The notes below the pieces were generated by a model that worked only from the letters and a program-made list of their open reading frames with translations, made no database searches and was not told the origin of the DNA. Source: a virus (lineage: Duplodnaviria > Heunggongvirae > Uroviricota > Caudoviricetes). Taken from it: a stretch of 26,984 nt of DNA. Below are positions 10,518 to 15,309 of the stretch, piece by piece; position 1 is the first letter of the stretch, and each line of letters opens with the position of its first letter. The DNA lies in IMG/VR virus record IMGVR_UViG_2645727948_000013. One strand, given 5' to 3'. A program made the translations under genes and the position numbers.

Positions 10518-11165
10518 TCACCATTCATAGGGTAAATTAAGCGCTTTTAAACCTTGCTGGAAAGTATTAAGAGATCCGTTTTTTTGTTGTTCCATTTTTT
10601 CGCGTGCAGCTTTCTCATACTGCTCCATCCGTTGGTTATACTCTTGCAATTCCTCCGGGGAGAGGTTTCCCATTGGGGAGTTTGTACCCGGCCCCCTGGC
10701 TCGTTCTTCAAGCGTACCCTGTACGTTTTGATGGCGCATTCCTGGGGCATTTCTTATTGAGTCAATGCCATTTCTTCCAACATCTTCTTTATTAACGGCA
10801 TTGCTCGCCACCAGCACACCCCAGCTAGGGATAGCAAAATCAGGAGCGGTTTCGCATGCCTTTACCATATAATCGAAAGTGCTTCGATTGATCTCGTTTG
10901 CGTCGGGATTTAACAGGCGAGAATATTGATATTTAGCATTTTCGTTGGTTGCGACTTTATACAGTTCTTGCTGCACCATCGCTTCAGAAAGTTTAAGGCG
11001 TTTCATATCTGACAGTAACTTCTTGCGCATGGATTCGTCTTGACTGACAGCAAAGCCGTAAACGTGCCCAAGGTATTTCGTATAATCGGTACAAATCTCC
11101 TTTACGCTTGATGCTGCATTAACAGTCCCAGCCATAAATAATAACGGTAGTAATAGTTTTCTCAT
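10518..11165 (-). CDS. Sim-like periplasmic superinfection-exclusion protein precursor, 215 aa from the RBS-supported start
   Basis: The track ORF 10518..11192 has no SD at its first ATG. The internal ATG at 11165 has a GGTGAGG SD and gives MRKLLLPLLFMAGTVNA (signal peptide). The C-terminal part shares GMRxxxVQGTLEERARGxGT with the Sit-like protein. Confidence 0.6.
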   Translation of the reverse strand: MRKLLLPLLFMAGTVNAASSVKEICTDYTKYLGHVYGFAVSQDESMRKKLLSDMKRLKLSEAMVQQELYKVATNENAKYQYSRLLNPDANEINRSTFDYMVKACETAPDFAIPSWGVLVASNAVNKEDVGRNGIDSIRNAPGMRHQNVQGTLEERARGPGTNSPMGNLSPEELQEYNQRMEQYEKAAREKMEQQKNGSLNTFQQGLKALNLPYEW

Positions 11166-11260
11166 TATAACCTCACCTGCCTTATAACTCATTTAGGGTA
11201 CATATTTTCGCCTTTAAAAAAAAGAGGTTATTAGATCCAATTGTGTATTTATTAAGCATG

Positions 11261-11277
11261 CAATGCTCTAATAGATT
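11261..11277 (+). promoter_or_regulatory. C1 repressor operator-like site (Op51-like) in the immI promoter region
   Basis: AATGCTCTAATAGATTT versus the P1 C1 operator consensus ATTGCTCTAATAAATTT (two mismatches), upstream of c4/icd/ant. Confidence 0.55.
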
Positions 11278-11299
11278 TGTATTTTTAAGTCGCGAATGC

Positions 11300-11590
11300 T
11301 ATCTTTTCGCATCATATTGACCTTTTAATCGTTCAGGCTTATAGTTCCGCCGTCGTAGCAAATTCTGCGACCGGGTTTAGCAGCCTGAATACTTACGCGG
11401 ACAACCGCAGATTTCCGATATTGCGGTATTTTTGTGTCCGTAAACCACGTTACGCCCGAATTATGGTGGGGCGTGATGGGGAGGCTTCGGCCTGCTGGTT
11501 TCGTAAGTGCCAGTCTGCTAACCCCGTCACGTCCTGCCACCTGTTTAGCAGCGGGTCGCAGGTTGTTTATCAACTTACGAGGCCGTAACT
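11300..11590 (+). ncRNA. c4: immI leader region expected to encode the c4 antisense repressor RNA (exact ends not determined)
   Basis: By position between the C1 operator and icd, as in P1. The motif tttagcagc occurs twice (about 11366 and 11543). No structure-based prediction was possible by eye. Confidence 0.35.
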
Positions 11591-12920: not shown

Positions 12921-12938
12921 ATTTGCTCTAATAAATTT
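12921..12938 (+). promoter_or_regulatory. C1 repressor operator-like site (Op53-like) upstream of kilA-repL
   Basis: TTTGCTCTAATAAATTT differs from the C1 operator consensus at one position. It sits upstream of the kilA start at 13008. Confidence 0.6.
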
Positions 12939-14979: not shown

Positions 14980-15003
14980 TACAATCGTTGCGGGTGCTTG
15001 AGG

Positions 15004-15038
15004 CTATCTGCTTCAGGCATTACCCGAAAAGCAGATAG
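15004..15038 (+). other. 10-bp perfect inverted repeat (ctatctgctt / aagcagatag, 15-nt loop)
   Basis: Read directly. It lies between the small membrane gene and the mok/hok locus and could be a terminator-like or 5' mRNA structure. Confidence 0.4.
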
Positions 15039-15102
15039 AAGAAAGCCCCAGATAACATTACGCGTCCTGCAAGACGCTTAACATTAATCTGAGGCCATAT
15101 CT

Positions 15103-15309
15103 ATGCTTAGCATACGTAGATTAGCCTCTTACCGACCAAAAGGTCAAGGAGAAGCAGGCTATGAAGCAGCAAAAAGCGATGTTAATCGCTCTGATCGTCA
15201 TCTGTTTAACCGTCATTGTGACGGCACTGGTAACGAGGAAAGACCTCTGCGAGGTACGAATCCGAACCGGCCAGACGGAGGTCACTGTCTTCACAGCCTA
15301 CGAATCTGA
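15103..15309 (+). CDS. mok: mok-like overlapping reading frame (modulator of hok translation), 68 aa
   Basis: ATG-initiated ORF that starts 58 nt upstream of hok, in a different frame, and ends 7 nt before the hok stop, as in hok/mok/sok loci. Confidence 0.45.
   Translation: MLSIRRLASYRPKGQGEAGYEAAKSDVNRSDRHLFNRHCDGTGNEERPLRGTNPNRPDGGHCLHSLRI

Follow-up and report, generated by a model that had tools for sequence, protein, structure and literature searches.

A module of about 40 residues is shared by SimA, a predicted periplasmic protein encoded at the superimmunity locus of a P1-like phage, and by the C-terminal part of Sit, the tape-measure protein of the same phage. The similarity is significant at the protein level, and the comparisons described below argue that the sharing is old and that the module has been maintained in both proteins. 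We tentatively propose, at a probability just short of even, that SimA interferes with genome injection by P1-like phages, its module acting as a mimic or decoy of the one in Sit.

The sim locus and the intact simA gene

The window (the whole stretch of DNA that was analysed, 26,984 nt) was 97.6% identical in this region to Escherichia phage vB_EcoM-Ro157c2YLVW (Punavirus, P1-like). By comparison with the P1 record, the locus is the immI/sim neighbourhood of P1. The minus-strand genes follow in the order simA, a gene for a 158-aa secreted protein, pmgC, tub, pmgB and sit, and upstream of simA, in the divergent direction, lie the C1 operator, the C4 antisense RNA with its targets, icd and ant (Table 1). 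The sim locus is placed upstream of the late promoter LPsit, adjoining the C1 operator and the immI operon. The interval that separates simA from the divergent c4-icd-ant operon holds the operator, about 100 nt upstream of the start of SimA, and the homologous place in the P1 record carries the annotated Oc4 and the predicted PsimA. A second C1-operator-like site, with one mismatch to the consensus, was noted upstream of a kilA homologue (12922-12938, plus strand), where it corresponds to OrepL/Op53 of P1. Downstream of the kilA/repL region, Rfam recognised a sok antitoxin RNA (RF01794, 114.9 bits; 14992-15166, plus strand), which suggests a toxin-antitoxin locus of the hok/sok type there.

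The 648-nt simA coding sequence is annotated identically by RefSeq in NC_050153. An alternative in-frame ATG at 11192 would extend the product to 224 aa, and the sequence GTGAGG is found 7 nt upstream of the ATG at 11165. The protein matched the phrog_3933 profile (NCBI 'simA domain protein') over residues 1-215 with E=3.4e-137 and belongs to this family. As originally predicted, it begins with a signal peptide; this is of the Sec type, with cleavage predicted between MRKLLLPLLFMAGTVNA and ASS (VNA followed by A). Residues N16, A17 and S19 are invariant in the family alignment, no lipobox cysteine was found in the signal peptide sequence, and residues 1-15 had AF2 pLDDT values below 50. SimA is thus predicted to be located in the envelope as a soluble periplasmic protein.

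The helical N-domain that follows is the best-conserved and the sole well-folded part of SimA, and it contains two cysteines, C25 and C104, that are invariant in the family alignment. Neither fold nor sequence comparison detected a relative of this domain, with no PDB hit either way, and no catalytic or binding fold was recognisable in it. The whole protein matched no exclusion or defence family in Pfam, PADLOC or NCBIfam. A partial match to the PTP-like phytase family (Pfam PF14566) reached 27.3 bits against a cut-off of 27.0; it was rejected, as the catalytic Cys-x5-Arg loop is missing and the structure gave no support. The Sit-like module consists of the core NAPGMRHQ followed by VQGTLEERARGPGT..MGN. 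It was disordered in the AF2 model (pLDDT 44-65) apart from short helices at residues 133-138 and 152-157. Beyond it, residues 170-208 of the window allele form a long C-terminal helix, which in other alleles is replaced by Cys-containing segments or is absent altogether.

Table 1. Positions in the window of the simA and sit features and of the neighbouring elements
Feature	Position	Strand	Basis
sit, tape-measure protein with transglycosylase domain, 1130 aa	4373..7765	-	Pfam SLT E=8.9e-27
Partial second module copy, Sit aa ~997-1017, GIDGLFDKLRNSPGMRKNNA	4715..4777	-	8/14 identities
Complete module in Sit, aa ~928-972	4850..4984	-	BLASTP, profiles, conservation
SLT lytic transglycosylase domain, Sit aa 748-857	5195..5524	-	Pfam PF01464
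Cassette replaced by simB-simC in P1	9984..11025	.	blastn breakpoints vs P1 and P7
158-aa secreted YfjT-family neighbour, described as co-transcribed	9990..10466	-	ORF; phrog_3429 E=3.4e-80
Full-length simA, 215 aa	10518..11165	-	ORF; phrog_3933 member
Variable C-terminal region of SimA	10521..10658	-	AF2 and family alignment
Sit-like module in SimA, aa ~128-171	10653..10784	-	BLASTP, shuffles, profiles
Conserved helical N-domain of SimA, aa ~20-130, orphan fold	10776..11108	-	AF2 pLDDT 92-97; family alignment
Predicted Sec signal peptide of SimA, aa 1-17, MRKLLLPLLFMAGTVNA	11115..11165	-	Read from sequence
C1 repressor operator (Oc4/Op51-like)	11262..11278	+	Pattern match, 2 mismatches
C4 antisense RNA of the immI region	11459..11544	+	Rfam RF01695, 70.8 bits

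Comparison with the P1 record indicates that the window gene is the intact form of a gene of which the P1 product SimA (P1_gp043, 52 aa, 'putative superimmunity accessory function') is a stump. The locus and the upstream region are the same, and the first 45 residues of P1 SimA, signal peptide included, are identical (45/45) to the 224-aa reading of the window gene. The homology of P1 SimA ends at codon ~47, and the P1 protein has neither the helical domain nor the Sit-like module. At the nucleotide level, homology to P1 breaks off at window position 11026 inside simA and picks up again at 9983, immediately ahead of LPsit and pmgC. In P1, judged by these breakpoints, simB-simC has taken the place of the remainder of simA and of the YfjT-like gene next to it. 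The cassette between the breakpoints in the window has a G+C content of 0.34-0.44, compared with 0.45-0.50 in the flanks.

The window protein had been called Sim-like in the original prediction. The name is justified by its position at the sim locus and by its identity to the 52-aa P1 SimA stump, but does not extend to SimC, and a SimC homologue was rejected as its identity (BLASTP E=29). SimC (Sim) is the exported protein credited with P1 superinfection exclusion in the work of Kliem & Dreiseikelmann 1989, as cited in PMC8546580. In P1 the sim phenotype is ascribed to sim, the gene annotated simC in the P1 record, and simABC are non-essential accessory genes (PMC10695390). SimA shares with SimC its location between pmgC/LPsit and the immI operator, as seen from synteny and breakpoints, and is likewise an exported protein as predicted from its signal peptide. 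SimC, unlike SimA, has no Sit-like motif (E=1.1), and the two share no sequence similarity. P7 has a third cassette at the locus, which encodes Upf50.0 and Upf50.5 (a DUF5384 protein and a glycine-zipper lipoprotein). These are again two exported proteins, unrelated to SimA in sequence and without the module. All the alternative cassettes, that of SimC among them, encode exported proteins, and the sim region is known to be variable among P1-like phage-plasmids (PMC9603915; PMC6906374).

Counterparts of the 158-aa neighbour in eight related loci were assigned to PF27224 (YfjT family). In all eight genomes examined the order of SimA, YfjT-family protein and pmgC-tub-pmgB-sit was identical, and full-length SimA was always directly followed by the YfjT-family gene (8/8). 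SimA and this neighbour may form a two-protein unit.

The SimA family comprised 28 clusters at 90% identity, and every member with an identifiable source was in a P1-like element of Escherichia, Salmonella or Klebsiella (Enterobacteriaceae). In PLSDB, 267 plasmids had a SimA match, which covered at least 80% of the protein in 84 of them. In an evenly sampled listing of these, roughly half matched the first 48 residues only, like the P1-type stump; one group of PLSDB matches stopped right after the module. A scan of genome contigs gave four loci. In the common 163-aa allele (E. coli plasmid pCFSAN004177G_03, L020 2474-4758) SimA ends directly behind the module, and downstream come another, different YfjT-like gene (168 aa) and an additional ORF of 394 aa. 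This new sequence places a recombination joint immediately after the module. Four further alleles (P0002, P0005, P0008 and P0017) are frameshifted at differing break points, in or after the module. They use a common stop-free alternative frame (window 10547-10750, minus strand) and give 205-aa products. A G5 run (CCAGGGGGCCGGG) is present at the end of the SimA module. The frameshifted alleles could be assembly errors, products of decay or the result of a mutational hot spot.

The module shared by SimA and Sit

BLASTP aligned SimA with Sit at 23 identities in 47 positions (43 bits, E=6e-9). The Smith-Waterman score was 101, compared with 40.2 +/- 5.6 for 1000 shuffled sequences (maximum 70), corresponding to a Gumbel p~3e-7. 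The original prediction had proposed a motif common to the C-terminal part of SimA and two segments of Sit, and this protein alignment found it significant. The peptides it quoted are present in both proteins, and its DNA coordinates were right within a few bases. The segments are SimA residues 133-161 (GIDSIRNAPGMRHQNVQGTLEERARGPGT, nt 10683-10769) and Sit residues 943-962 (GMRREVVQGTLEERARGKGT, nt 4880-4939) and 998-1017 (GIDGLFDKLRNSPGMRKNNA, nt 4715-4774). Among 199 ORFs of the window, Sit was the only match of SimA besides itself (E=1e-7), with one other alignment at E = 0.25. The PHROG profiles, which are independent and were built by others, gave reciprocal hits: SimA matched positions 928-972 of 1130 in the Sit family HMM phrog_2533 (E=6.9e-8), and the Sit C-terminus matched positions 129-169 of the SimA family HMM phrog_3933 (E=3.7e-8). 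SimA is no member of phrog_2533, which consists of a helical ruler, the SLT domain and a C-terminal domain; only the module is common to both. The stretch is short and sits in disordered regions, as might be expected of a chance similarity or a low-complexity artefact. The E value, the shuffles and the reciprocal HMM hits, together with a module profile search that recovered both families and nothing else, refuted such an explanation and leave it practically no probability.

P1 Sit is a tape measure detected in virions, with an SLT domain near its C-terminus (PMC9024508). Some 270 residues of Sit lie beyond the transglycosylase domain. An AF2 model of Sit 701-1130 was confident at fragment residues ~11-170 (Sit ~711-870), that is, in the SLT domain only. 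The module had pLDDT values below 50, with helices at places equivalent to the two in SimA, in a model built on a shallow alignment. A disordered module with the same two short helices in both models is as expected for a peptide ligand.

In the Sit proteins of seven other P1/D6-like genomes (1074-1084 aa) the module is single and contiguous. It reads approximately ~LG[IV]xxLxxKFxN[AS][PR]GMRH[EQ]xVQGTLAERAYGxGTxTxMGN and aligns to the entire SimA stretch, the trailing MGN(L/V)SP included. P1-type Sit has an extra ~45 aa after the module (aa ~973-1017; 4715-4850, minus strand), which contain a partial copy, GIDGLFDKLRNSPGMRKNNAPEP. Two Sit segments had been named as the counterparts of the SimA motif. 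Both are present, but since the Sit proteins of other lineages carry one contiguous module, they are not two sources; by this comparison they are one complete ancestral module and a lineage-specific partial duplicate. Of the insertion with the second copy there are two alleles, KLRNSPGMRKNNAPEP and KLINARGMRSNNSPQP, and which of them is present does not depend on the SimA state.

The likeness of the two copies, for which the original prediction had also proposed a DNA comparison, was found at the protein level only. The module DNA of simA and sit in the window was identical at 51 of 81 nt, and identical codons were used at 7 of the 17 identical residues. We extended the within-genome comparison to eight genomes over a fixed length of 27 codons. 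In genomes whose SimA has the full module the DNA identity was 58-63%, against 37-43% in those whose SimA retains the core alone, and in each of the eight genomes the same codon was used at under half of the identical residues. The low DNA identity and the scrambled codons therefore indicated that the sharing is ancient and without recent gene conversion. A recent event of copying or conversion that involved sit and simA was accordingly rejected, given a DNA identity of ~60% with scrambled synonymous sites in all eight genomes.

Across 11 Sit proteins (44-87% identical), conservation was 0.74-0.84 in the module, 0.63-0.73 in the SLT domain and 0.2-0.5 in the flanking linkers. The Sit module is thus an island of conservation, as conserved as the catalytic SLT domain. 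In SimA, every non-frameshifted full-length allele examined kept the NAPGMRHQ core, even where the C-terminus was swapped, the second half of the module was replaced or a stop followed right after the module. The core was also kept in the member with the most divergent N-domain (P0046, 176 aa), whose context was limited to ~1-kb contigs. The second half of the module was missing from about half of the SimA alleles. Taken together, these alignments show purifying selection on the module in both SimA and Sit.

We screened 1.84 billion (1.84e9) representative proteins with a module profile and obtained ten at E<=0.001: three Sit-like (1081-1124 aa, module at ~920-970), three SimA-like (176-222 aa, module at ~130-177), three fragments and one 3090-aa repeat protein (P0045). 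The last was rejected as a carrier of the module, its score being an artefact that sums 27 weak repeats. No host protein and no other phage protein with the module was found among these representatives. At this scale of search the module shows itself private to the Sit-like and SimA-like families.

The direction of transfer could be approached through a 14.9-kb metagenomic contig from a divergent P1-like element (L019). Its Sit is 44% identical and retains the module, and the window SimA aligns to it with 56% identity over 36 aa. On this contig pmgC-tub-pmgB-sit comes straight after bplB, and the sim/immI/kilA/repL block is absent from between them. This arrangement suggests that the tail operon was contiguous in the ancestor and that the immI-lytic replicon block was inserted into it as a whole. 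The module is present in a Sit without the sim/immI insertion and is therefore ancestral in Sit; on these sequences, SimA most probably acquired it from there. The motif had originally been described as copied from Sit. That direction is likely, but the event was ancient, not recent.

We also searched for signs that the two modules change together or bind within the proteins. Covariation between the module of SimA and that of its cognate Sit gave no significant signal in eight divergent genomes; the P/R alternative at the third core position was concordant in five of the eight, which is not significant. The Sit module was essentially invariant across ~70 P1-like IMG/VR loci, whether SimA was full, truncated or a stump. 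In AF2 models, which here involve low-confidence regions and shallow alignments, the module docked on neither the SLT domain nor the SimA N-domain.

Possible functions of the shared module

SimA would be exported to the periplasm by its Sec signal peptide, where a flexible linker behind its compact helical domain would display the linear module of ~40 residues. Sit carries the homologous module after its transglycosylase domain near the C-terminus and would be ejected into the periplasm during infection; by analogy with other tailed phages, its C-terminal end would presumably be released there. The resident SimA module may then compete with the incoming Sit module for its binding partner, which might be part of the host envelope, part of the phage tail tip or hub, or Sit itself. 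P1-like phages would thereby be hindered in injecting their genomes, which amounts to superinfection exclusion. Because a resident motif would be displayed in the periplasm and exclusion proteins acting on tape-measure proteins are known, we rank interference with injection by mimicry first, although we put it at somewhat less than an even chance. Expression in lysogens, the exclusion activity and competition as the mechanism are what we infer for it. The narrower proposal, that SimA is a soluble periplasmic decoy-type exclusion protein whose copy of an indispensable Sit motif out-competes Sit for its docking partner, is possible rather than likely. Its plausibility comes from three features of the module, namely its position in a disordered linker of SimA and Sit alike, its restriction to these two families and the purifying selection that acts on it. 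Against mimicry we counted that the exclusion phenotype is credited to SimC, which is unrelated to SimA, and likewise the missing covariation, the missing docking and the alleles that lack the second half of the module. Our literature search found no report of the SimA-Sit motif or of tape-measure mimicry.

The module might instead be a shared address tag that brings SimA and Sit to one common structure of the envelope, for example the peptidoglycan or a protein of the periplasm or inner membrane. The activity of SimA would then reside in the N-domain and might be unrelated to exclusion, and SimA could serve lysogenic conversion or host fitness. The conservation and folding of SimA, concentrated in the N-domain, are consistent with this, as are C-termini that are freely swapped while the N-domain and the module core stay. 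So is the constant pairing with a secreted YfjT-family protein, from a family that, per its naming after E. coli YfjT, occurs outside P1-like phages too. A general envelope-binding tag, however, would be expected in other proteins, and this module was seen nowhere outside Sit and SimA; moreover, the N-domain has no catalytic or binding fold that could be recognised. We consider the address tag unlikely. A direct action of SimA on Sit, in place of a third partner, has a similarly low probability. SimA might be a poison subunit that co-assembles with the ejected Sit through a self-associating module common to both, or a periplasmic immunity protein that inhibits the Sit transglycosylase. In the latter variant the module would copy an intramolecular SLT-binding segment, and the lysogen would be shielded from lysis-from-without.

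Residues that are kept although synonymous sites are saturated are difficult to reconcile with a neutral relic, in which the stretch would have no function in SimA and would stem from old illegitimate recombination between sit and a gene 6 kb away. The core also persists in the most divergent SimA, P0046, and the alleles truncated by recombination end just after the module and not inside it. Such a relic would fit the closeness of sit and simA on the same strand, the several cassettes that mark the sim locus as a recombination hot spot (PMC9603915), the loss of the second half of the module in many alleles and the existence of frameshifted ones. On balance, we regard it as very improbable.

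If the mimicry proposal is true, SimA would represent the first exclusion mechanism that works by mimicry of a virion protein, and not by binding it or by masking a receptor. This would be a new logic for superinfection exclusion and would help to explain the cassette swapping at the sim locus. Escape of the target would be hard, because the motif is private to P1-like phages and highly constrained in Sit, and a functional site would be marked in the uncharacterised C-terminal part of Sit. P1-like phage-plasmids are important carriers of resistance genes, and the passage of DNA of contractile-tailed phages such as P1 across the periplasm and the inner membrane is poorly understood. A linear motif found both in the C-terminal part of Sit and in a periplasmic protein at the superimmunity locus offers a precise and cheap experimental handle of ~10 residues. 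Regardless of mechanism, the annotation is corrected, in that what is called 'SimA' in P1 is the stump of a longer gene, which many P1-like elements have in its intact form.

Comparison with exclusion systems acting on tape-measure proteins

Several known systems act on the tape-measure protein. The SNIPE defence system associates with that of lambda. T4 Imm binds the tape-measure protein gp29 (bioRxiv 10.64898/2026.03.06.709160), and the exclusion by HK97 gp15 and TP-J34 Ltp is escaped by changes in the tape-measure protein (PMC10883804). T4 Imm, HK97 gp15, Ltp and lactococcal Sie2009 are located in the envelope and block DNA entry through the tape-measure protein. SimA showed no Pfam or PADLOC match that would relate it to any of these four. 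Neither T4 Imm, HK97 gp15 and Ltp nor SNIPE is reported to resemble its target in sequence, and our literature search found no case of an exclusion protein sharing sequence with its tape-measure target. SimA resembles such proteins in its predicted envelope location and in its tie to the tape measure, which in this case runs through the shared module sequence. The four proteins, however, are membrane proteins or lipoproteins that bind the tape-measure protein and share no sequence with it, whereas SimA is predicted to be soluble in the periplasm and carries a copy of a tape-measure motif.
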